Source: a virus
Taxonomy: Duplodnaviria; Heunggongvirae; Uroviricota; Caudoviricetes
IMG/VR virus record: IMGVR_UViG_3300042154_004306
Direction: 5' to 3' (one strand)
Length of the DNA stretch: 64,000 bases
Part shown: in pieces, positions 34,975 to 46,386 of the stretch
How the letters are laid out: each line of letters starts with the position of its first letter
Position numbering within the stretch: the stretch's first letter is position 1
Translations under genes and position numbers: made by a program
The notes under the pieces: model-generated
Seen by the model: only the letters and a program-made list of their open reading frames with translations
Told to the model about the DNA's origin: nothing
The model's database searches: none

Positions 34975-37155
34975 ATGAGAAAAATTACTCAACTTATGGT
35001 ATTGATGCTATCGATACTAACTATCCCCAAGTGTTTTGCACAAAGTGTAACAATCGGCCCAATCTCTGGTGCTTCGTCCTATCAAACAGGTCCCATCTAT
35101 CAAAGGGTTACCGCTCAGAGCTCAAATTATGCTAAGTCCGCTTATCTTTACACCAAAGATGAATTAAACATTCCCTCTGGATCAACCATTACAAAAGTTG
35201 AATGGTTAAAAGCAAATAATGCGACTGCTACCGGTAACAATAAATTCAAGGTTATCATTTCCAATACACCTAAAACAACAATGGGTGTATCTGCCAACTA
35301 TTCGGACTTTTTACAAAACTCACAAACAGTTTTCTCAACTGATAAACTAGGGTTACCAGCCACAACTAATTATTGGATACCTTGCCAATTCTCATCTGGG
35401 TTTATATATGAAGGTGGAAGCTTATCTATACTAACCGATTGGGCTAAAGCTGGAACATGTACTGGCCCATTAAACTTTTATCAAAAACCTTCTGTTGGAA
35501 AGTCTATGCAGGTAATCAGTCCAGCACTAATACCACAAGATGCTTTGCTACTACCAACATCTGGTTCGGTAAGACCCACAATTAGAATAACATACACAGC
35601 ACCTATTATGTGTTCCACGATGCCTAGTCCAGGCTTGGCTGTCTCTACGAATTCGGTTGTTTGTCCAAACCAACAATTCACACTTTCACTAACTAATAAA
35701 ATAGCCGAAGGTGGTATATCCTATGACTGGCAGAAATCAAATGCTTTATCTTTTGATAGCGCCGCTTCTATTGGTAATGGTTCATCAGTAATTACATCAC
35801 AAACAGCCGAGACATATTATAGATGTAAGGTTAGCTGTGGTAGTCTTGTTACTTGGACAAATATTATAAAAATACCAATTAACCCTTTTTACAATTGCTA
35901 TTGCCCAAGTACGGCTCAATCCCCAACAGATGAGGAAATAACACATTTCAAATTAGGTGATTTAGATAAAAAATCCAGTGTTGGTACTCCTGTTATATTT
36001 GGGGTTAGACCTGGAGACTGTGGTGATTTAGCACCCGGTGAAGGATCAAAAAAATCTTTATACTCAAACTATAGAGGGGATAAACCCACAGATATTAAAA
36101 TTGGTTCCACTGTTCCCTTTATTGTTGAAACATCATTATGTGGCACTAATGGAGCTTATAACCGTGCCGCTATTTTTATAGATGCTAACCGAAATGGTGA
36201 ATTTGAGGGTAGTGAACAAATTTATCTATCACCTGTTGTTTATGGTCCAACTGCCAGTGTTAGAAAAGGTTTTATTAAAATCCCTATCACATCACAACCA
36301 GGTATAACAGGAGTTAGAGTTATTGTGAACGAAACACAAAACGCAATTTCATCATGTGGATCTTATGCTTTTGGAGAAACTGAGGACTACACAATCAACT
36401 TAGTTAGCCATATTAACTGTGATTCTATTCCCACAATAGTAAGCTCTGATACTAAAGTTTGTAAAGGCAGTAGTTTATTACTTTACCCATCTATAACAGG
36501 TGATAGTTATCAATGGATTAAAAATGGTCAAGTGGTAAGTGGATCTACTGATTTTTTTTATGAACCAGTTGTATCTGAACCTACTACTTTTATTTGTAAA
36601 GTTAAATGTGGTGATGTATTAAAAGAAACAGAGTCAATTTTAATTGATTTAAATAAGTTTACTGATTGTTATTGTGAGTCTGGTGCTGGTGGTCAGGCTG
36701 ATGAAGAAATTATAGACTTCACGTTAAATGGAGTAAAGGTTGGTCTAGATTGTGGTAAACAAGCACCCGGTGCTAAATCCTACTTAAATGAATACTCAGA
36801 CTTTAAACCAAACGGTTCATTTACCGAACTAAAAAAGGGTAATACATACTCATTTGATATTTATGATAATGACTGTGATACACCAGCCTCGCCATATTAT
36901 ACAGCGTCAGTTGGTGGTTGGATAGACTTTAATCAAAATGGGGTGTTTGATAATAACGAAAAAATTCTACAAGTTGATGGTGTAACCGGACCTAAACACA
37001 TAACCGGAACCATAACAATACCATTAAATGCTATATCGGGGGTTACCTGTCTTAGATTAGTATTAGGTGGAGGTTTATATGGGGTTTACCTAACACCGTG
37101 TTCTAAATTTCAATCAGGTGAAACAGAAGATCACTTAGTTACAATAACCGATTAA
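34975..37155 (+). CDS. large secreted Cys-rich protein with two GEVED-like C-terminal-type modules
   Basis: 726 aa, signal peptide. Repeated module ending FGETEDYTINLV and QSGETEDHLVTITD (GEVED-like). CAATAAATAA at 34953-34962 upstream. Confidence 0.5.
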   Translation: MRKITQLMVLMLSILTIPKCFAQSVTIGPISGASSYQTGPIYQRVTAQSSNYAKSAYLYTKDELNIPSGSTITKVEWLKANNATATGNNKFKVIISNTPKTTMGVSANYSDFLQNSQTVFSTDKLGLPATTNYWIPCQFSSGFIYEGGSLSILTDWAKAGTCTGPLNFYQKPSVGKSMQVISPALIPQDALLLPTSGSVRPTIRITYTAPIMCSTMPSPGLAVSTNSVVCPNQQFTLSLTNKIAEGGISYDWQKSNALSFDSAASIGNGSSVITSQTAETYYRCKVSCGSLVTWTNIIKIPINPFYNCYCPSTAQSPTDEEITHFKLGDLDKKSSVGTPVIFGVRPGDCGDLAPGEGSKKSLYSNYRGDKPTDIKIGSTVPFIVETSLCGTNGAYNRAAIFIDANRNGEFEGSEQIYLSPVVYGPTASVRKGFIKIPITSQPGITGVRVIVNETQNAISSCGSYAFGETEDYTINLVSHINCDSIPTIVSSDTKVCKGSSLLLYPSITGDSYQWIKNGQVVSGSTDFFYEPVVSEPTTFICKVKCGDVLKETESILIDLNKFTDCYCESGAGGQADEEIIDFTLNGVKVGLDCGKQAPGAKSYLNEYSDFKPNGSFTELKKGNTYSFDIYDNDCDTPASPYYTASVGGWIDFNQNGVFDNNEKILQVDGVTGPKHITGTITIPLNAISGVTCLRLVLGGGLYGVYLTPCSKFQSGETEDHLVTITD

Positions 37156-40947: not shown

Positions 40948-40997
40948 TTATAACGATTACAAATAAAACATCGTTTTAATGTGTTTTATTTGTTGTT
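40948..40997. repeat. hairpin element, ATCGTTTTAATG-loop subtype
   Basis: ttataacgatt-ACAAATAAAACA-tcgttttaatg-TGTTTTATTTGT-tgttataag. Confidence 0.6.
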
Positions 40998-41042
40998 ATA
41001 AGTATGTAAAACAAAAATTATACAAATTAAAAGAAATAAATT

Positions 41043-41231
41043 ATGAAAACATTATTAAGTAGAGTAGAAGAAGAAAGTGTTAATTATGCAACAGCAGAAC
41101 ATGCAGCGATAGACCATTTAAAAATGGCATCTGCACATTTATTTGAAGAAACAGAAGGTAGAGACATTGATAATTGGTTATCAGATATTGAAAAAATAAT
41201 TCAAAAACTTGAGAACAGAATAAACTCATAA
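41043..41231 (+). CDS. small hypothetical protein
   Basis: 62 aa. Confidence 0.4.
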   Translation: MKTLLSRVEEESVNYATAEHAAIDHLKMASAHLFEETEGRDIDNWLSDIEKIIQKLENRINS

Positions 41232-41312
41232 TTTTTGTTTTATTACTTATAACGGTTTGCAGCTAACCGAAGGCGGTGATTTAATAGATAAATTAACTTA
41301 AAAGAATATAAT

Positions 41313-41531
41313 ATGAATGAGCAATTAACTATCAAAAAAGCACGAAACCACCGCTTTTGGTTAGGTGGTGTTATGTGCCGTTTATTCCATTACATAAGAA
41401 CTATTGAAGAGTGTAAATTCATTGATAGAGTTGATGGAAGAGAGGTAGGGCAATTTGAATGTGTAAAGTGTGGAACTAAATTTATGGCTAATAAAAAGCG
41501 AAGTTGGTTTCGTGTCTATAATGGCACATAA
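41313..41531 (+). CDS. small zinc-ribbon protein
   Basis: 72 aa, CVKCGTKF. Confidence 0.4.
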   Translation: MNEQLTIKKARNHRFWLGGVMCRLFHYIRTIEECKFIDRVDGREVGQFECVKCGTKFMANKKRSWFRVYNGT

Positions 41532-41580
41532 CGGTTGAGTGTAAAAAATCGTTTTAATGTTTTTTACACTTTGTTATAAA
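41521..41580. repeat. hairpin element, ATCGTTTTAATG-loop subtype
   Basis: cacataacggttgag-TGTAAAAAA-tcgttttaatg-TTTTTTACA-ctttgttataa. Confidence 0.6.
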
Positions 41581-41604
41581 TATGTAAAACTAAAATTATA
41601 CAAT

Positions 41605-41757
41605 ATGAAAAAATACTTTATTAAACAAGAATTGATGTGTGGTGAAGTTTATCACATGATATATGTAAGATGGTTTGGATTATTTGAATCATTTTATGAA
41701 AGGTGGAATACTTATGAAACATCGAAAATAAGACTGAACGAATTAAACAATTCATAA
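41605..41757 (+). CDS. small hypothetical protein (start at MKKYFIKQ)
   Basis: Trimmed from track ORF 41557, whose 5' part lies in the hairpin element. Confidence 0.35.
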   Translation: MKKYFIKQELMCGEVYHMIYVRWFGLFESFYERWNTYETSKIRLNELNNS

Positions 41758-41773
41758 TTTTAGTTTTATTATT

Positions 41774-41850
41774 TATAACGTTTTGCGTATAAAAGAAAGC
41801 TACGAAGCAGAGCCTTTAGCGTTGGGTAGCTTTCTTTTATACGCTGTTAT
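41774..41850. repeat. hairpin element with 19-bp perfect stem
   Basis: ataacgtttt-GCGTATAAAAGAAAGCTAC-loop-GTAGCTTTCTTTTATACGC-tgttatc. Confidence 0.7.
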
Positions 41851-41894
41851 CGGATGCCCTTTCAATGAATTATTAAATTAAAAACAGACACAAA

Positions 41895-42284
41895 ATGAAC
41901 AGACAAATTAAATTTAGGGCTTGGGATAAAACATACAGCCTAATGAATTACAAAGTGCAAGTTGGCAATACTGACCTCGCAGACCCCAATTACACTTGCA
42001 ATAGCATTTGGGTTGATAGTGGTGATTTTGTAACTATTGGATGGATGAATGCTGATGAAAATTGTATTGACCTTATGCAATTTACTGGATTGAAAGATAA
42101 GAATGGCAAGGAAATTTATGAGGGTGATTTAGTTCAGCACGATGCTTGGAACTATCCATTTGAAGTAATTTTCAATGATGAAAAAGCAAGGTTTGTTTGC
42201 AAGTTACAAACGGGATTAACTCAATACATAGATTGTGAAAGATTGGTTGTTGTCGGTAACATTCACGAAACGGTATCTGCTTAG
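41895..42284 (+). CDS. YopX-family phage protein
   Basis: 129 aa. KFRAWDK ... QFTGLKDKNGKEIYEGDLV ... VVGNIHE matches the YopX domain. Confidence 0.7.
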   Translation: MNRQIKFRAWDKTYSLMNYKVQVGNTDLADPNYTCNSIWVDSGDFVTIGWMNADENCIDLMQFTGLKDKNGKEIYEGDLVQHDAWNYPFEVIFNDEKARFVCKLQTGLTQYIDCERLVVVGNIHETVSA

Positions 42285-42393
42285 GGTTGCCGATAACGAC
42301 TGCAAATATACAACGTTTTTTTGTAGAAAGTTTCAAATTAATTTTTTTTTTTGATAAAAATGTGGTATATTTGTTGTTATAAAACGGTTAGAT

Positions 42394-42603
42394 ATGAAAA
42401 AAGGACAAAAATTTATCATGAAAATTGATAAGTATTACGGTAAAGATAATTTACTGAAACAAGGGGATGTTATTGAATTTGTGGGTAACAAAAGAAGTTC
42501 AACAGGAATGTTGTCTGTATTCAAAAATCAAAATGGATTGGTTTTTAAAACTTATGCTATATCTATGGATAAATTTTTGACAGATTATACAAATGTTTTA
42601 TAA
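42394..42603 (+). CDS. small hypothetical protein
   Basis: 69 aa. Confidence 0.4.
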   Translation: MKKGQKFIMKIDKYYGKDNLLKQGDVIEFVGNKRSSTGMLSVFKNQNGLVFKTYAISMDKFLTDYTNVL

Positions 42604-42702
42604 CAGTTAGGTATATGTGAAGTACCTTACCACAGAAATTAATAATTTAGTAGAAACTTTATGAGGTATTTCACATATACTTTGTTATAAACAGTAATTA
42701 AT

Positions 42703-42912
42703 ATGGAAAAAAAACTTAAACAAGGAACAGTAATAACCGCAACACACGAAGGTGGTTCATTTTGGAAAATAGACGATAGTTTTATTTTTACAGATACACC
42801 AGAAAGTGGATTACAAACTTACAATAATGAAGGAAAGAAATTATATTTTCCAAAAAATCACGACTTATCTGGTTGCGGTTTTCCAGAAGATATGTTTGAA
42901 ACACCGAATTAA
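42703..42912 (+). CDS. small hypothetical protein
   Basis: 69 aa. Confidence 0.4.
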   Translation: MEKKLKQGTVITATHEGGSFWKIDDSFIFTDTPESGLQTYNNEGKKLYFPKNHDLSGCGFPEDMFETPN

Positions 42913-42921
42913 TTATTGTTT

Positions 42922-43050
42922 ATAACGTATCGCAGATAAGCGAAGGCAAAGATTTAGAAACGAAAACTTTAATTTTAAAACAGAATATAATATGAAAACG
43001 AGAATATCAATTTACCACAGAACCTTTGCTTTTGCTTATGTGCTGTTATG
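42922..43050. repeat. hairpin element (long-loop variant)
   Basis: 5' arm ataacgtatcgcagataagcgaaggcaaag pairs with 3' arm ctttgcttttgcttatgtgctgttat. Confidence 0.55.
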
Positions 43051-43099
43051 CCTTCGTTCTTTTTCACAAATCAATTATTAACAAACAAAAAATAAAATT

Positions 43100-43348
43100 A
43101 TGTCAGAATTAAAAACAGAACATTTAGTGTATATGTCAGACGAGATGTACACACCAATTCACTACAAAGGAATTATAGTCCAACAACCTTTTTTTGAAGG
43201 TAAAGGGAATCATTCGGTTGCTCAATTAGAAGCAATATGTGAACAATTTAAAGAGTATGTTCATCAGCAACAAATAATTAAGCAAAATTGTATGAAACAT
43301 ATTGTCGAATTAAAGTTCGGTGTCGAGTTCCCACAGAATGAGGCATAA
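43100..43348 (+). CDS. small hypothetical protein
   Basis: 82 aa. Confidence 0.4.
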   Translation: MSELKTEHLVYMSDEMYTPIHYKGIIVQQPFFEGKGNHSVAQLEAICEQFKEYVHQQQIIKQNCMKHIVELKFGVEFPQNEA

Positions 43349-43390
43349 CGTTTGCGGATATATGAATGTAAAAAATTAATAATTAGAACG

Positions 43391-43750
43391 ATGATAACAA
43401 CACAAAATTTAACAGAATTAGGTTTTAGTGAGATACTTGATGTATTCACTGGGAAACACGTTTGGGTTTTAGGTGAAGAAGATACTGAGATATGCGGAAA
43501 CCCTTGTAAATTGCCAATATTTTATTACAACATAGAAACCCAAACTTGTAAAGTAGTTAGGGGTGAATTTTGTGTTGTTCAACGAGAATGTAAAACAGAG
43601 GAAGAAATTATAAAGTTTGTAGAATCTATTAATTTTTTATTTCATATATCCGTTGTTATAAATAGTAAAAAACCTATCGAACAAGTATTATCCGAAGCGA
43701 TTAAAGAATCTTATGATAAGATAAAAGACAATTTAGAACCACCACTTTAA
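43391..43750 (+). CDS. hypothetical protein (start at MITTQNL)
   Basis: Trimmed from track ORF 43352; 120 aa. Confidence 0.4.
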   Translation: MITTQNLTELGFSEILDVFTGKHVWVLGEEDTEICGNPCKLPIFYYNIETQTCKVVRGEFCVVQRECKTEEEIIKFVESINFLFHISVVINSKKPIEQVLSEAIKESYDKIKDNLEPPL

Positions 43751-43828
43751 GGTTTTTTATTGTTTATAACGGACACAGATATATTTCTGGTTTTCTTTTT
43801 AATATATACTTAAAAATAGTAAACGAAG

Positions 43829-44167
43829 ATGAAAGATTTAAAACACATAAAAAGATTTAACGAGTCAGAAGAAAACTTGAATATATCTGATGTTAGTAGT
43901 AGTAAAAATCAGCATTTACTTGTGGTTCATCATGAAAGTGGTGATGAAATACATTTTACTGTTATAGATTATTCATTATATCCACAGATTGATAAAATGA
44001 TAAATGATGGACTTAATACACAGAAACAAGTTGAAAATATGTTGAATATAATCTATAACAACACATTAGAACATTTGATGTGTCAAACTTATGTATTAGA
44101 AGACTACACTAAAATTGGAAAATATAACATAGTAAAATGTATTCATCTACCAGAGTTGGGTAGTTGA
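43829..44167 (+). CDS. hypothetical protein with shared N-terminal module MKDLKHIKRFNESEENLNISDV
   Basis: 112 aa. 5' region and first ~28 codons duplicated at 45016. Confidence 0.5.
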   Translation: MKDLKHIKRFNESEENLNISDVSSSKNQHLLVVHHESGDEIHFTVIDYSLYPQIDKMINDGLNTQKQVENMLNIIYNNTLEHLMCQTYVLEDYTKIGKYNIVKCIHLPELGS

Positions 44168-44180
44168 TTTTTATTACTAC

Positions 44181-44312
44181 TAACGTTTCCACGCTTGGCG
44201 AAGAAGCGGAATTGAAAGCACATACTTTCAGTTTAGTAAAAAAGCCAATAGGAAGCACGAATGTTCAATTTAGCACTAAAACCGCTTTTTTGCCAAACGT
44301 GTGTTATAACCA
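44181..44312. repeat. hairpin element (long variant)
   Basis: ctaacgtttccacgcttggcgaagaagcgg pairs with aaaaccgcttttttgccaaacgtgtgttataacc. Covers spurious track ORF 44164..44376. Confidence 0.5.
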
Positions 44313-44350
44313 GTGCTTTTTACGAATTATAAACTTAAAAAATAAACACA

Positions 44351-44635
44351 ATGTCAAAATTAAACAGAGAATTTGATTACAAATATTACAAATTCAACAC
44401 ATCAGTTGAGTTAAACACCAAAGTCGAAAAAAGACTAAATGGTAAAAGGTGGCACACAATTATAACTAATTGTATGGGTGGCAACAATTACTACCAAAAA
44501 GATGAAATAGAAACTTTCCAAATTGAGGAATATGTTGAAAAACATAAACAGTTAGCTATTGAATACATTGATAAATTAACTTACAAGCCACAAAGTTTTG
44601 AAGAGCAATTGTTGTCAGGACTTGGGTTCTCGTAG
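44351..44635 (+). CDS. small hypothetical protein
   Basis: 94 aa. Confidence 0.4.
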   Translation: MSKLNREFDYKYYKFNTSVELNTKVEKRLNGKRWHTIITNCMGGNNYYQKDEIETFQIEEYVEKHKQLAIEYIDKLTYKPQSFEEQLLSGLGFS

Positions 44636-44642
44636 CATTGGT

Positions 44643-44760
44643 TATAACGGACAGGTATAACCGAAGGCGGGGATTAAGTGCAACCACCCTAACCAACGGC
44701 ACAAAGTAAATTGGTAGTACAATAGCTGAATGACGGATATACGCCCCGCTTTTGGTTATG
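44643..44760. repeat. hairpin element
   Basis: ttataacgg ... ATAACCGAAGGCGGGG-loop-CCCCGCTTTTGGTTAT. Confidence 0.6.
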
Positions 44761-44790
44761 CAATGTTAGGCGTATGTAAATTTTACGATT

Positions 44791-44940
44791 ATGGGACTAC
44801 TAATATTTTTTGGAATAGTTATACTGTTTATGATAGCAGATGACAGACAAATTAAAAAGGACATTGATGCAGCAACCAAAATAAAATGGACAAAGAAAGA
44901 TGCGGAGAACTATTATAAAAACTTTGACGAATGGCAGTAA
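44791..44940 (+). CDS. small membrane protein (49 aa; below the ORF-track cutoff)
   Basis: MGLLIFFGIVILFMIADD hydrophobic N-terminus; sits between two hairpin elements. Confidence 0.3.
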   Translation: MGLLIFFGIVILFMIADDRQIKKDIDAATKIKWTKKDAENYYKNFDEWQ

Positions 44941-45015
44941 AATTTATTACGCCTAACGATACTCAGATATATTTAGGTTTTCTTTTTAATATATACACTA
45001 AAATAACATAAGAAG

Positions 45016-45327
45016 ATGAAAGATTTAACACACATAAGGAGATTTAATGAGTCAGAAGAAAACTTGAATATATCTGATGTTAGAAGTAGTAAATTAAACA
45101 TACATTATTTTATGGAACAACTTTCAATTGATGATATAAGAAAATCTATTGAAGATAATTTACATTACCAAAAAACAGGTAAAAGATTATTTGATAGGAC
45201 TATACAAGACGAAATATACGAAATATACTTTAGTGGATTAGGTGAAAGTAAATCTACTATGATGTTTGAGTCGTATGATATTATATGTAGGGAACTTTCT
45301 AAGAGGTGGTTTTTGGGTAATGTTTAA
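45016..45327 (+). CDS. hypothetical protein with shared N-terminal module MKDLTHIRRFNESEENLNISDV
   Basis: 103 aa; N-terminal module paralogous to 43829, C-terminal body unrelated. Confidence 0.5.
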   Translation: MKDLTHIRRFNESEENLNISDVRSSKLNIHYFMEQLSIDDIRKSIEDNLHYQKTGKRLFDRTIQDEIYEIYFSGLGESKSTMMFESYDIICRELSKRWFLGNV

Positions 45328-45335
45328 TTTATTAC

Positions 45336-45466
45336 TTCTAACGGCTGACGCTATACGAAGGCAGGGGTTAAGATGCACTCCCTTTCAGCCTTGCACAAAT
45401 GATAAATAGATGCACACCGCTTCAATTAGCAGTAAAGCCCCTGCTTTTGTATAGCGTATGTTATAG
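45336..45466. repeat. hairpin element
   Basis: cttctaacggctgacg-CTATACGAAGGCAGGGG-loop-CCCCTGCTTTTGTATAGCG-tatgttatag. Confidence 0.6.
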
Positions 45467-45488
45467 GGCGTTTTTAATTCAAATCAAA

Positions 45489-45668
45489 ATGGCAAAAGAG
45501 TACATTAAAATCGAACTTACAGAAGATGACATCAAGAAAATGGTTGCTGAAAAATACAACCTTGACATCAACAGGACAACAATTAACGTATCACATTACG
45601 CTGGTGATGCTCGTGAACCTGCATACACTTCAATAGTAGTAACAGGTCAACGTGATGGTGGGGTGTAA
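45489..45668 (+). CDS. small hypothetical protein (start MAKEYIK)
   Basis: Trimmed from track ORF 45399, whose 5' part is the hairpin element. Confidence 0.4.
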   Translation: MAKEYIKIELTEDDIKKMVAEKYNLDINRTTINVSHYAGDAREPAYTSIVVTGQRDGGV

Positions 45669-45737
45669 AATGCCCTATAACGGTTGCAGATATACCTAGT
45701 TTGGGATTAAATACTAGAAACTTTAAATTAAGATAAA

Positions 45738-45986
45738 ATGAAAAAAGAAGAACAAAACTTGAATAACGCAGAGAACCCCAAATTGGGTATATCTGATGTT
45801 ATGTGTAGTGGTTATACAATTAGATTTAATGAAGTAGACACTAACGAAATTATCATCAATAAAGATGCGATAAACATAAATGACTTTGAACAGATGAAAG
45901 TATCTGGAACAATTGTAGATTATGAAATTGATGATAATGGAGTGAAAATTATAAAGAAGTTTGATTTAAGGAGCGTGTCTCTTTAA
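45738..45986 (+). CDS. small hypothetical protein
   Basis: 82 aa; N-terminus NPKLGISDV weakly resembles the NLNISDV module. Confidence 0.4.
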   Translation: MKKEEQNLNNAENPKLGISDVMCSGYTIRFNEVDTNEIIINKDAININDFEQMKVSGTIVDYEIDDNGVKIIKKFDLRSVSL

Positions 45987-45994
45987 CCATTACA

Positions 45995-46088
45995 CATAAC
46001 GGTTGGGTGTATGAGAAGGTTTGCTTAGATGAACTTTCAAATTACCACAACTATTGATAGCAAACTTTCTTATACACCTTGTTACCAA
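45995..46088. repeat. hairpin element
   Basis: cacataacggttg-GGTGTATGAGAAGGTTTGC-loop-GCAAACTTTCTTATACACC-ttgttacca. Confidence 0.65.
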
Positions 46089-46121
46089 CAGTACGGATTA
46101 TTAATATAAAACTTAAATAAA

Positions 46122-46373
46122 ATGGAAAAGAAAATCGAAAACATTGAGGATATATATCCTTTGACCATAGTGAAAATGCGTTATGGTGGAAAAATTGTAA
46201 TCTTCAACGCTGATAATGATGCGGGATTTGTTGATTCTGTACAAGGTGATGAAGAAGTTTATTATATCATTAATGACTGGTTAGAAGAACATGTATCACC
46301 TTGCTTGTATGGTATTGGCGACACAATTTGGTCAGCATTTGAAGATTACAAAAAACGTTTATATAAGTACTAA
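46122..46373 (+). CDS. small hypothetical protein
   Basis: 83 aa. Confidence 0.4.
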   Translation: MEKKIENIEDIYPLTIVKMRYGGKIVIFNADNDAGFVDSVQGDEEVYYIINDWLEEHVSPCLYGIGDTIWSAFEDYKKRLYKY

Positions 46374-46386
46374 CGTAGTATTGTTG

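Follow-up and report, generated by a model that had tools for sequence, protein, structure and literature searches.

The window analyzed here, a 64,000-nt stretch of viral DNA (Caudoviricetes, IMG/VR record IMGVR_UViG_3300042154_004306), contains an array of ~20 gene cassettes (40951..48001, + strand) separated by elements of 48-313 nt, each consisting of TAAC, a hairpin, and GTTA. A Python scan for such elements returned 18-19 in the array versus 2-3 weak matches in the remaining 56 kb of the window, and one long element (43346-43658) was added by eye. The array has a lower GC content than the window (30.2% vs 37.9%) and lies next to an ORF encoding a tyrosine recombinase of the Xer/IntI clade (48038..48844, + strand). 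The phage carries T4-type replication genes, and the carrier is a large T4-related phage that probably infects Bacteroidota. No head genes were found in the window, and a Megablast search of the 40-50 kb region against GenBank phages gave no match.

Two of the elements are closely similar hairpin modules of ~129 nt, comprising TAAC, a 19 bp stem, a 71 nt loop, and GTTA. Copy A (43767..43895, + strand) runs from the R'' box TAAC (43767-43770) through the 5' arm (~43776-43795) and the 3' arm (43871-43889) to the R' box GTTA (43892-43895). Its assignment is based on inverted repeats and a DNA fold that is more stable for the + strand (-12 kcal/mol) than for the - strand (-9.5), and its 71-nt loop holds AATATATAC (43801) and an ATG (43829). 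In copy B (44954..45082, + strand), TAAC (44954-44957), the 5' arm (44964-44982), the 3' arm (45058-45076), and GTTA (45079-45082) follow in the same order, an inverted repeat was detected, and the fold comprises a 22-bp stem plus the R box (-11.2 kcal/mol); here too the loop holds AATATATAC (44988) and an ATG (45016). From these start codons run ORF A (43829..44167, + strand, 112 aa) and ORF B (45016..45327, + strand, 103 aa), both beginning MKDL(K/T)HI(K/R)RFNESEENLNISDV. Codons 1-22 of ORF A (43829-43894) lie inside the hairpin, codon 22 (GTT) being the first three bases of R', and the body that follows is cassette specific; ORF B has the same 22-codon leader and an unrelated body. A third, diverged hairpin of the leader type, with inverted and direct repeat matches, occupies 45678..45801 (+ strand, CAGATATACC...GGTATATCTG), and its ORF (45738-45986, + strand) also begins within the loop and reads through GTTA in that same frame (..GISDVM..). 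The sequence-only reading of this DNA had overlooked the inverted-repeat nature of the module, its TAAC and GTTA limits, and the third copy, and also that the same type of hairpin separates every gene in the array, that a hairpin and its downstream ORF form one cassette, and that a tyrosine recombinase adjoins.

That reading had reported two similar copies at 43770-43925 and 44955-45110, and these are indeed present at 82% identity (130/159). The real unit, from TAAC to 11 nt past GTTA (43767-43906 vs 44954-45093), is 88% identical (124/141) with an ungapped core of 118 nt at 90%, against a mean of 52% and a maximum of 62% for random 140-mers within the array (n=1930). Upstream flanks and gene bodies are at the random level: the 100 nt 5' of TAAC are 54% identical between the copies, the ORF bodies past the leader are 55% identical, and the BLASTP match is confined to residues 1-26. 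The bodies are unrelated, as had been noted, and similarity through the whole genes was not found. The further suggestion of a recent duplication did not hold, since the nearest relatives of either copy are found in other viral contigs and not in its partner. For copy B, identity reaches 95% with a copy in locus L118 and 93% with one in L073, and copy A is 90% identical to copies in L087, L118, and L073; the identity of A to B is only 87% and ranks 6th and 8th among their respective neighbors. An exact 24-mer of the module is present in 55 viral stretches, and by such sequence matches the module belongs to a widespread repeat family. Recent duplication of a 5' segment within the genome, or simple paralogy, would account for two such copies starting 1187 nt apart, but with closer relatives elsewhere, bodies at random identity, and more than 50 other, mutually unrelated bodies behind the same leader, it is scarcely credible. 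The accompanying proposal of modular recombination inside the array fared better: module and gene bodies are separable units whose combinations vary across loci, and one body family was found with several leader lineages or without any leader.

Conservation of the stem was assessed across 47 homologous modules. Pairing across the 19 bp was 99%, seven pairs showed compensatory double changes, and these pairing and covariation values were reached in none of 500 shuffles; TAAC and GTTA were invariant in all 47. The stems are AT-rich, and the folding z of single sequences is only about -2. The architecture resembles that of integron attC sites, with a 6 x 2 nt internal loop between R box and stem and loops of 13-270 nt, and matches the full RYYYAAC/GTTRRRY consensus only loosely. 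As TAAC...GTTA is its own reverse complement, the scan was blind to orientation, and the orientation of the elements was taken from the asymmetry of G.T wobbles in the stems, 471 on the + strand versus 34 on the - strand. Given this asymmetry, and the greater stability of its fold, the + strand is the folded strand. Strand choice in integrons is set by conserved extrahelical bases; the leader subfamily showed no conserved bulge of this kind, and the strand bias is seen instead in the wobbles.

Wobbles tolerated only on the sense strand would fit mRNA structure equally well, and with the start codon in the loop and the genes codirectional, read-through transcripts would hold both arms. That the hairpin acts mainly on RNA, in mRNA processing, stability, or translational control, with DNA mobility secondary, is nonetheless improbable. 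A transcript beginning at AATATATAC, if that is a promoter, would be without the 5' arm, and Rfam searches at gathering and lenient thresholds returned only tRNAs and sub-threshold miRNA-like hairpin noise, with no family match. Such a role would also leave unexplained the sharp cassette ends, the attI-like site, and the pairing of sequence after GTTA with the far cassette end instead of the adjacent 5' flank, all described below.

When ~130 related loci were compared, the arrays resolved into separate cassettes that combine a hairpin with the ORF downstream of it, end sharply in TAAC, and have the layout C-G-[hairpin]-GTTA-[ORF]-...nnnnTAA. ORFs were on the + strand in 238/270 cassettes, with start codons within the loops. 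The cassette at 44644..44958 (+ strand; hairpin 44645-44768, ORF 44791-44940) is 100% identical over 315 nt to L073 2131-2445 while its flanks are unrelated, which defines the ends at TAAC; other moved cassettes were 99.6-100% identical, again between unrelated flanks. Judged from these alignments, cassette ends fall inside TAAC at the 5' foot of the hairpin. By this rule cassette A would span 43770..44183 (+ strand), from the C of TAAC to the A of the next TAA, and cassette B 44957..45341 (+ strand). Among homologous bodies in nonsyntenic positions, 21 cases kept the whole upstream hairpin and ended at the next TAAC, and none followed the canonical integron pattern. Canonical polarity, with crossover at G|TTA and the hairpin 3' of its ORF, was thus ruled out, because homologous bodies carry the upstream and not the downstream hairpin (21 vs 0). 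Cassette order also varies: loci L010 and L004 have recombinase regions that are 97% identical and shared cassettes in different order, and some cassettes are internal in one locus and attI-proximal in another. No leader-type cassette was found moved as a complete unit with both TAAC ends intact; the moved leader-type cases begin ~79 nt before GTTA, as one partner is without the 5' arm.

The cassettes carry the circular-permutation signature of integrons. In a set of 268 unique cassettes, the octamer that follows GTTA pairs at a mean of 6.79/8 positions with the octamer preceding the next TAAC (51% perfect), versus 4.36/8, the random value, when the adjacent 5' flank is taken as the partner (p = 1.7e-37). 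Complementarity between the two ends extends over 20 nt in cassette A (43892-43911 with 44165-44184, 95%) and over 23 nt in cassette B (45079-45101 with 45320-45342, 96%).

The promoter-early stem-loop elements (PeSLs) of T4-type phages, which join sigma70 promoter and terminator motifs and are shuffled by homology without a dedicated recombinase (Arbiol 2010, PMC2839356; Comeau 2014, PMC4122927), offer a close phage precedent. Like PeSLs, which place a promoter and stem-loop beside small ORFans and undergo modular shuffling with mini-circles, the elements described here are repeated stem-loop motifs that flank ORFans in a T4-related hyperplastic region, are shuffled as modules, and might plausibly form mini-circles. 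The phage has T4-type replication genes, AATATATAC lies ~22 nt ahead of the ATG, where it is a possible promoter-like motif from its sequence, and homologous recombination best explains exchange inside the invariant 3' arm. Even so, we consider it unlikely that these are regulatory cassettes with promoter- or terminator-like hairpins, shuffled by homology beside an unrelated recombinase. Breakpoints fall on the 4-nt TAAC between unrelated sequences, including junctions with a nonhairpin attI-like site, and the cassette-specific complementarity from end to end would be unexpected under homologous recombination. The arrays also adjoin a recombinase gene, on one side only, in nearly all loci. PeSLs are defined by a strong sigma70-like early promoter joined to a terminator stem-loop, but here GTTA and coding sequence come next to the stems; with loops of up to 270 nt (minimum 13) and no T-run, the hairpins are not intrinsic terminators. 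What sets the array apart from PeSLs is a crossover core of 4 nt, an attI-like site, the linkage to a recombinase, and elements that themselves contain coding sequence.

The attI-like junction (47998..48015, + strand) lies 36 nt 5' of the recombinase ATG and consists of TAAC (47998-48001) followed by conserved TATCATATATAAAC, the site here reading ATTnnnnATAAC|TATCATATATAAAC. Its consensus, AT(T/G)nnnn(A/C)TAAC|TATnATATAT(A/C), is present in 67/68 distinct related loci, 35-45 nt 5' of the gene, and the sequence left of TAAC is always a variable cassette end. In related viral loci, elements lie immediately 5' of the recombinase gene and almost never 3'. The recombinase, of 268 aa from its ATG (an alternative ORF start is TTG 48032), contains the Pfam domains Phage_int_SAM_4 and Phage_integrase. 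Both its NCBIfam scores, 176 bits for XerA_Arch and 151 bits for the integron integrase model TIGR02249 (cut-off 265 bits), are below cut-off, and its best PDB match is XerA 4a8e. Alignment to VchIntIA 2a3v falls into two pieces (query 22-181 to chain 17-180, query 213-266 to chain 260-313), and ~48 residues are absent relative to that structure, leaving the enzyme without the IntI-specific insertion. As integron integrases need this insertion to read folded attC sites, and it is essential for integron function (PMC8138268), recognition of the hairpins by the phage recombinase is suggested by context only.

Relatives of the recombinase place it, by sequence, in a viral clade: IMG/VR contains 203 at 57-91% identity, whereas the best substantially complete bacterial or archaeal gene among 185,579 species genomes is 50% identical, with one truncated 66% match on a 2.1-kb MAG contig, and the best match in GenBank phages is ≤40%. 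A Polaribacter phage, Freya_10, whose recombinase is 36% identical and which has a variable region 5' of int, was considered and set aside; ATTGTTGCTAAC precedes its int, but there is no hairpin array. The conserved TAAC|TATnATATAT could in principle be the attP of an ordinary lysogeny integrase, with the repeats unrelated, for attP beside int is the usual arrangement and the nearest relatives from isolates bear phage integrase annotations. This is very unlikely: no prophage copy was found among the species genomes searched, the same TAAC core bounds every cassette, and what stands to the left of TAAC at this site is invariably a variable cassette end.

The frame set by the loop ATG crosses GTTA into unrelated bodies in 55/55 instances and stays open for 18-102 codons beyond, a pattern showing that the leader is translated into those bodies. 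Two kinds of constraint act on it. At F10 (TTC in 16 copies, TTT in 13) and E12 (GAA in 17, GAG in 16) synonymous codons vary while the residues are kept, as is N11, which indicates selection on the peptide over codons 10-12 (F-N-E). Codons 15-22 (ENLNISDV), on the other hand, are invariant in nucleotides, which indicates that this half is fixed as nucleic acid. In the AF2 model of ORF A, pLDDT stays <50 over residues 1-21 and reaches 86-94 over residues 28-110, so that the leader is predicted to be disordered and to lie outside the fold of the body. The sequence-only reading had raised the possibility of a targeting or cleavable leader, and the conserved F10-N11-E12 together with the predicted disorder lends some support to a peptide that matters in its own right. 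About eight leader ORFs occur without a 5' arm, showing that the leader can persist without the hairpin. Searches of the cassette proteins with Pfam and PHROGs yielded one YopX match only, and when the model of ORF 43829 was searched with Foldseek, neither PDB nor BFVD yielded a match below E = 0.01 or a TM-score >0.4.

Taken together, we think it likely that this locus is a phage-borne analog of the integron, whose recombination sites carry expression and leader signals. Copies A and B would represent one subfamily of single-strand-folding recombination sites resembling attC, each heading a mobile cassette. The recombinase would excise cassettes as circles and reinsert them through a cut at TAA|C in the folded + strand; the predicted circle junction of cassette A is ...TGATTTTTATTACTACTAA|CGGACACAGATAT.... 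The geometry would match the bottom strand of integrons (RYYYAA|C ... GTTRRRY), where the integrase gene likewise adjoins attI. Since the ORFs run codirectionally with the recombinase, unlike in integrons, each site would lie 5' of its ORF and its loop carry the expression signals. In the leader subfamily, the loop would supply possibly promoter-like AATATATAC, the start codon, and codons 1-14, and the 3' arm plus GTTA would encode ENLNISDV, so that cargo ORFs behind leader-type sites would all be made as fusions to a disordered leader of 22 residues. Cassettes of one family generated or exchanged within the platform may explain why the same module meets unrelated bodies, and the sharp 3' limit of similarity may stem from exchange, probably by homology, within the invariant segment formed by the 3' arm and R'.

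The likeness to integrons extends to an array of promoter-poor small ORFs parted by imperfect hairpins with AAC/GTT cores, widely varying loop size, circularly permuted cassette ends, an order shuffled between relatives, and an integration site abutting the 5' end of a tyrosine recombinase gene. The coding strand of this gene equals the folded, bottom-like strand, and the sequences are consistent with a single crossover at AA|C on that one folded strand. Unlike integrons, the ORFs are inverted relative to the sites, each site being 5' of its own ORF, the recombinase is Xer-like, start codons and leader peptides are encoded within the sites, pairing of the extended R boxes spans 8-23 nt, and the host is a large phage; the layout of a common Pc with each ORF before its attC was not found. 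There are precedents for parts of this arrangement. XerCD acts on the folded single-stranded attP of CTX-type phages, an Xer-type enzyme thus using an ssDNA hairpin without the IntI insertion, although that system performs a single integration at host dif and is not known to involve a cassette array or a phage-encoded recombinase. In class 1 integrons, ORF-11 in attI1 supplies translation initiation to cassettes that do not have their own, by translational coupling from attI and for the first cassette only, whereas here every leader-type cassette brings an in-frame leader of its own within its site. The cases reported from phages so far are bacterial integrons that were captured, or CALINs of 2-3 sites (PMC9892861). 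A platform of this kind was not found described in literature searches that combined integrons with huge, jumbo, or Xer-like phage systems, within incomplete coverage that makes a prior description possible, and the huge gut phage papers examined mention neither a recombinase nor a cassette system.

The leader also invites comparison with the internal proteins of T4, where a short conserved N-terminal leader likewise precedes highly diverse small proteins in a plastic T4-related locus. A targeting peptide of this type suffices for packaging and is removed by a gp21-type prohead protease after the Glu of a hydrophobic-X-E motif. In the T4 capsid targeting sequence (CTS), residues 4 and 7 target the protein and cleavage follows L/I-X-E (PMC3012670, PMC9026906). 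The phage leader has hydrophobic residues at positions 4 and 7 (L4, I7) and a hydrophobic-X-Glu motif (F10-N11-E12), in which it resembles the CTS. It differs from the CTS in that there is no sequence homology and in that its second half appears to be dictated by DNA and not by the peptide. F.E N-termini make up 6.2% among array ORFs vs 3.3%, a weak difference confounded by recombinase N-termini. MK..K.FEE-like N-termini also occur on proteins unlikely to be packaged, e.g., recombinases. We offer only tentatively, as a doubtful extension, that large Bacteroidota phages use their own integron analog (an Xer-like recombinase without the IntI domain acting on hairpins of a folded + strand) to store and shuffle a collection of ORFan effectors, with leader-type sites adding a CTS-like propeptide, MKxxKHIxxFNE|, that tags the cargo for capsid packing and injection along with the DNA. 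If true, the array would be a reshufflable arsenal of early-acting, e.g., antidefense, proteins.

Integrons are viewed as devices of bacteria, and of a few archaea, that rely on the specialized IntI, and phages are reported to carry only captured pieces of them. In the present lineage, seen in more than 200 viral contigs, the phages appear to operate a cassette platform of their own by means of a simpler, Xer-like enzyme, and the recombination site, on the 5' side of the gene, appears to double as promoter, start, and leader. The platform would account mechanistically for the hyperplastic regions, rich in ORFans, that large phages have, and would provide a natural experiment on what an integrase requires to use folded DNA. 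It also bears on the birth of cassettes, as dozens of unrelated bodies stand in frame behind a single family of sites and the protein itself displays the joint (..NISDV|SDS..). As a sequence tag, the leader further allows hundreds of cargo proteins to be retrieved from metagenomes.

The two similar stretches that the sequence-only reading had picked out (43770-43925 and 44955-45110) are real, with 82% identity (130/159), and the natural unit, 43767-43906 against 44954-45093, is 88% identical (124/141). Identity in the 100 nt 5' of both copies (54%) and in the gene bodies (55%) was at the level expected at random for this AT-rich region (mean 52%, maximum 62%). As had been proposed, ORFs 43829-44167 and 45016-45327 share their N-terminus only; BLASTP similarity was confined to residues 1-26 and no similarity extended through the whole genes, the bodies being at random level. 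The two copies in the window, termed A and B, are not each other's closest relatives, and the 'recent duplication' proposed to explain them is therefore wrong. A third, diverged copy was located at 45678-45801, where ORF 45738 begins in the loop in the same frame.

Each copy (A, 43767-43895; B, 44954-45082) was recognized by a repeat finder as an inverted repeat with the layout TAAC-G(6 nt)-CAGATATATTTAGGTTTTC, a 71-nt loop and GAAAACTTGAATATATCTG-AT-GTTA, the loop holding AATATATAC, an A-rich stretch and the ATG, and the 3' arm plus GTTA encoding ENLNISDV. Folded as ssDNA, the + strand forms a long hairpin of -12 (copy A) and -11.2 kcal/mol (copy B), and the - strand gave -9.5 and -9.4 kcal/mol, respectively, with z only about -2. 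Across 47 modules, stem positions were paired in 99% of instances with double changes in 7 of 19 pairs, values reached by 0/500 shuffles, and the immediate 5' flank paired poorly (60%) with the extension of the GTTA box (R'), as predicted by the cassette model. Stems from 324 unique elements contained 471 G.T or T.G oppositions on the + strand and only 34 positions that would wobble on the - strand; a role of the hairpin at the mRNA level is compatible with this. The exact 24-mer AAAACTTGAATATATCTGATGTTA was present in 55 viral stretches, and nhmmer returned 97 matches, 55-59 of them unique module instances. The motif ATATATA[AC] occurs on the + strand at just four sites in 64 kb (43801, 44988, 46849 and 48005), namely both leader loops, 5' of ORF 46870 and the attI-like site 5' of the recombinase, each 20-30 nt 5' of an ATG, and may be an array-specific promoter or recombinase-binding motif.

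Scanning for TAAC-stem...stem-GTTA recovered 18-19 elements, every one within 40951-47976, and 2-3 weak matches in the rest of the 64-kb window. The elements fall into subfamilies of ~48, ~88 and ~125 nt, with an additional element at 43346-43658 having a loop of ~270 nt. This loop contains ATG 43391 and most of an ORF (stop 43750) that reads out via the GTTA, so a site loop can hold coding sequence. In the final cassette before the recombinase (47789-48001), the hairpin spans 188 nt and its loop includes an ORF of 51 aa; the 'body' amounts to just ~20 nt (ATCGTTTTAATG), a sequence that in the 48-nt subfamily is the conserved loop motif. Directly 3' of the array, a tyrosine recombinase of 268 aa (ATG 48038) carries Pfam domains Phage_int_SAM_4 and Phage_integrase. 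Its best NCBIfam matches were XerA_Arch and integron-integrase models, both under cut-off, and archaeal XerA was the nearest solved structure. By eye, from sequence and alignment, the motifs RVSE, HTLRH, GHS and IYTHV fit the catalytic residues. Alignment to the integron integrase VchIntIA splits into two segments, and the recombinase lacks ~48 residues belonging to the IntI-specific insertion. The window is the genome of a large phage, with all long ORFs except one on the + strand (disregarding short antisense ORFs nested in + strand genes), six tRNAs, T4-type topoisomerase II subunits and two RNA ligases; by topoisomerase II, the closest GenBank relatives are uncultured phages of 634-642 kb (55-56%). 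Unusual phage cargo included two proteins: at 12986-14128 a SulP-family sulfate permease (Pfam E = 6e-39), and at 34975-37155 one of 726 aa that has two GEVED domains.

To define the mobile unit, homologues of ORF bodies lying between two elements were sought in non-syntenic contexts. In 21 cases, homology comprised the entire upstream hairpin plus the body and ended 3-8 nt from the start of the next TAAC, versus 0 cases of the canonical integron polarity, in which homology would run from GTTA through the downstream hairpin. Near-identical cassettes were shared with, or between, related loci from other contigs: window 44644-44958 with L073 2131-2445 (100% over 315 nt), window 41530-41779 with L113 (99.6%), and L010 583-1542 with L004 9011-9970 (99.9% over 960 nt). 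All three had unrelated flanks on both sides, and the mobile unit is therefore C-G-hairpin-GTTA-ORF-...TAA, with a predicted crossover within (T)AAC. Pairing of the 8 nt that follow GTTA was assessed across 268 unique cassettes: against the 8 nt preceding the next TAAC, the mean was 6.79/8 positions (perfect in 51%), but against the immediate 5' flank only 4.36/8, the random value (Wilcoxon p = 1.7e-37), a signature expected if the site is completed only in the circular cassette. In copy A, the bases after GTTA (43892-43911) are complementary over 20 nt to 44165-44184, and in copy B (45079-45101) over 23 nt to 45320-45342, in both beyond the ORF and before the next TAAC. L010 and L004, with recombinase regions 97% identical, carry shared cassettes in different orders, and the 99.6% identity between L003 and L004 across 6.7 kb is lost 5' of a cassette boundary. 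The array ended 35-45 nt 5' of the recombinase start codon in 67/68 distinct loci, at a site with the consensus AT(T/G)nnnn(A/C)TAAC|TATnATATAT(A/C), the right half conserved and the variable cassette end at left; in the window this attI-like site is 47998-48015. The same cassettes were internal in one locus and last before the attI-like site in another.

We found 203 relatives of the recombinase in IMG/VR, on contigs up to 362 kb, with 57-91% identity among the 80 loci kept. No GenBank phage matched above 40%, and among the bacterial and archaeal matches 50% identity was the best for a substantially complete gene, alongside one truncated 66% match from a MAG contig of 2.1 kb. Where 10 kb was available either side of the recombinase, hairpin elements were located 5' of the gene (2-18 per locus) and almost never 3'; a few loci also had 3' elements (L005 with eight, L054 and L062), which may be second arrays. 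Many viral contigs terminate 40-340 nt 5' of the recombinase gene (L008, L011, L022, L025, L045, L046, L059, L063, L069 and L076), as expected of a repeat-rich, population-variable region, and such assembly breaks within the array suggest cassette heterogeneity inside populations. Bacterial relatives were 41-50% identical and longer (347 aa in L214). Downstream of them lay arrays of TAAC-hairpin-GTTA elements (70-126 nt), each site preceded by an ORF, as in L214 7743-14403 (Flavobacterium saccharophilum DSM 1811), which contains a duplicated 311-aa cassette, and in L180, L190, L191, L153, L169, L177 and L205. They resemble integron-type arrays operated by Xer-like recombinases, and occur in Bacteroidota and in a Desulfitobacterium, phyla reported as nearly integron-free in integron surveys.

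The phage array probably works like an integron. The + strand order, 5'-...TAA|C-stem...stem-GTTA...-3', is that of the bottom strand in integrons, on which intI lies beside attI, as the recombinase gene lies beside the attI-like site on the + strand here. The only topological difference is that the cassette ORFs are inverted: they point the same way as the recombinase, and every ORF is preceded by its own site. The system departs from integrons in two defining features: the recombinase is devoid of the IntI insertion, and ORF/site polarity is inverted without a common promoter. It also differs from promoter early stem-loop (PeSL) cassettes of T4-type phages (PMC2839356, PMC4122927) in its 4-nt crossover core, linked recombinase and attI-like site. 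The phage examples in print are either integrons captured from bacteria or small CALINs (PMC9892861), and in the literature on integrons with huge, jumbo or Xer-like phage systems, of which coverage was incomplete, nothing comparable was found.

In 55/55 unique instances, the frame from the loop ATG stayed open 18-102 codons past GTTA, into mutually unrelated bodies, compared with an estimated ~12 codons for a random frame in DNA of this composition, which indicates that the leader-body fusion proteins are real. The site was read through in 29/30 leader (ISDV) type elements, 7/16 of the GAAGGC-type subfamily and 71/256 remaining long elements. Among 37 standard leaders, codons 10-12 kept F, N and E with alternating synonymous codons (TTC 16/TTT 13, AAC 20/AAT 5, GAA 17/GAG 16), indicating selection on the peptide, and codons 15-22 were invariant at the nucleotide level, indicating selection on the stem and R' box. 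AlphaFold models of the ORF 43829 family had a confident alpha/beta body (pLDDT 86-94), for which a structure search returned no significant match, and a disordered leader (pLDDT <50 for residues 1-21). Approximately 20 full-length homologues of this body in metagenomes carry differing leader lineages (MKDLKHIKRFNESEENLNISDV, MSKEIREHIDKFNKFRLSENLNISDV, MRHEMRKEIDKFKGFLKENSEEKLNISDI and others), some having the leader N-part without NISDV and others being leaderless. Cassette A and L136 share ~94% DNA identity that starts at the 3' arm, continues across the body and ends at the terminal TAAC, but are unrelated 5' of the arm; exchange therefore also takes place within the invariant 3' arm/R' segment, homologous recombination being the simplest route. 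Approximately eight leader ORFs retained the leader coding part and 3' arm/GTTA without TAAC and the 5' arm (L100 ~7681, L104 ~8183, L128, L054, L111, L123, L086 and L090); in two independent pairs, homology begins ~79 nt before GTTA, right after the ATATATAC motif.

In the leader, positions 4 and 7 are hydrophobic and a hydrophobic-X-Glu motif comes after them, a pattern reminiscent of the T4 capsid targeting sequence, which is carried by a varied set of injected proteins with anti-defence roles (PMC3012670, PMC9026906). Similar N-termini (MKYIKLFEEF.., MKLKKFNEF.., ..SFNEY..) were found on unrelated non-array proteins without DNA similarity to the module, and on a homologue in a non-cassette genome (L135). 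In the window, non-array ORFs starting at 480, 996, 25986, 26547, 27121, 52795 and 54224 have MK(Y/L)(I/L)K.F(E/N)EF-like N-termini (for example, MKYIKLFEEFE and MKLKKFNEFIAINE), the motif being shared by unrelated proteins across the genome. Enrichment of the N-terminal motif among array ORFs was weak and confounded. That the leader might, by analogy, be a T4 capsid-targeting-like peptide through which cargo is packaged is conceivable but rather unlikely. A minimal reading, which fits all the data, is that cargo of any kind receives from the site a preformed start and an N-terminal linker lacking structure.
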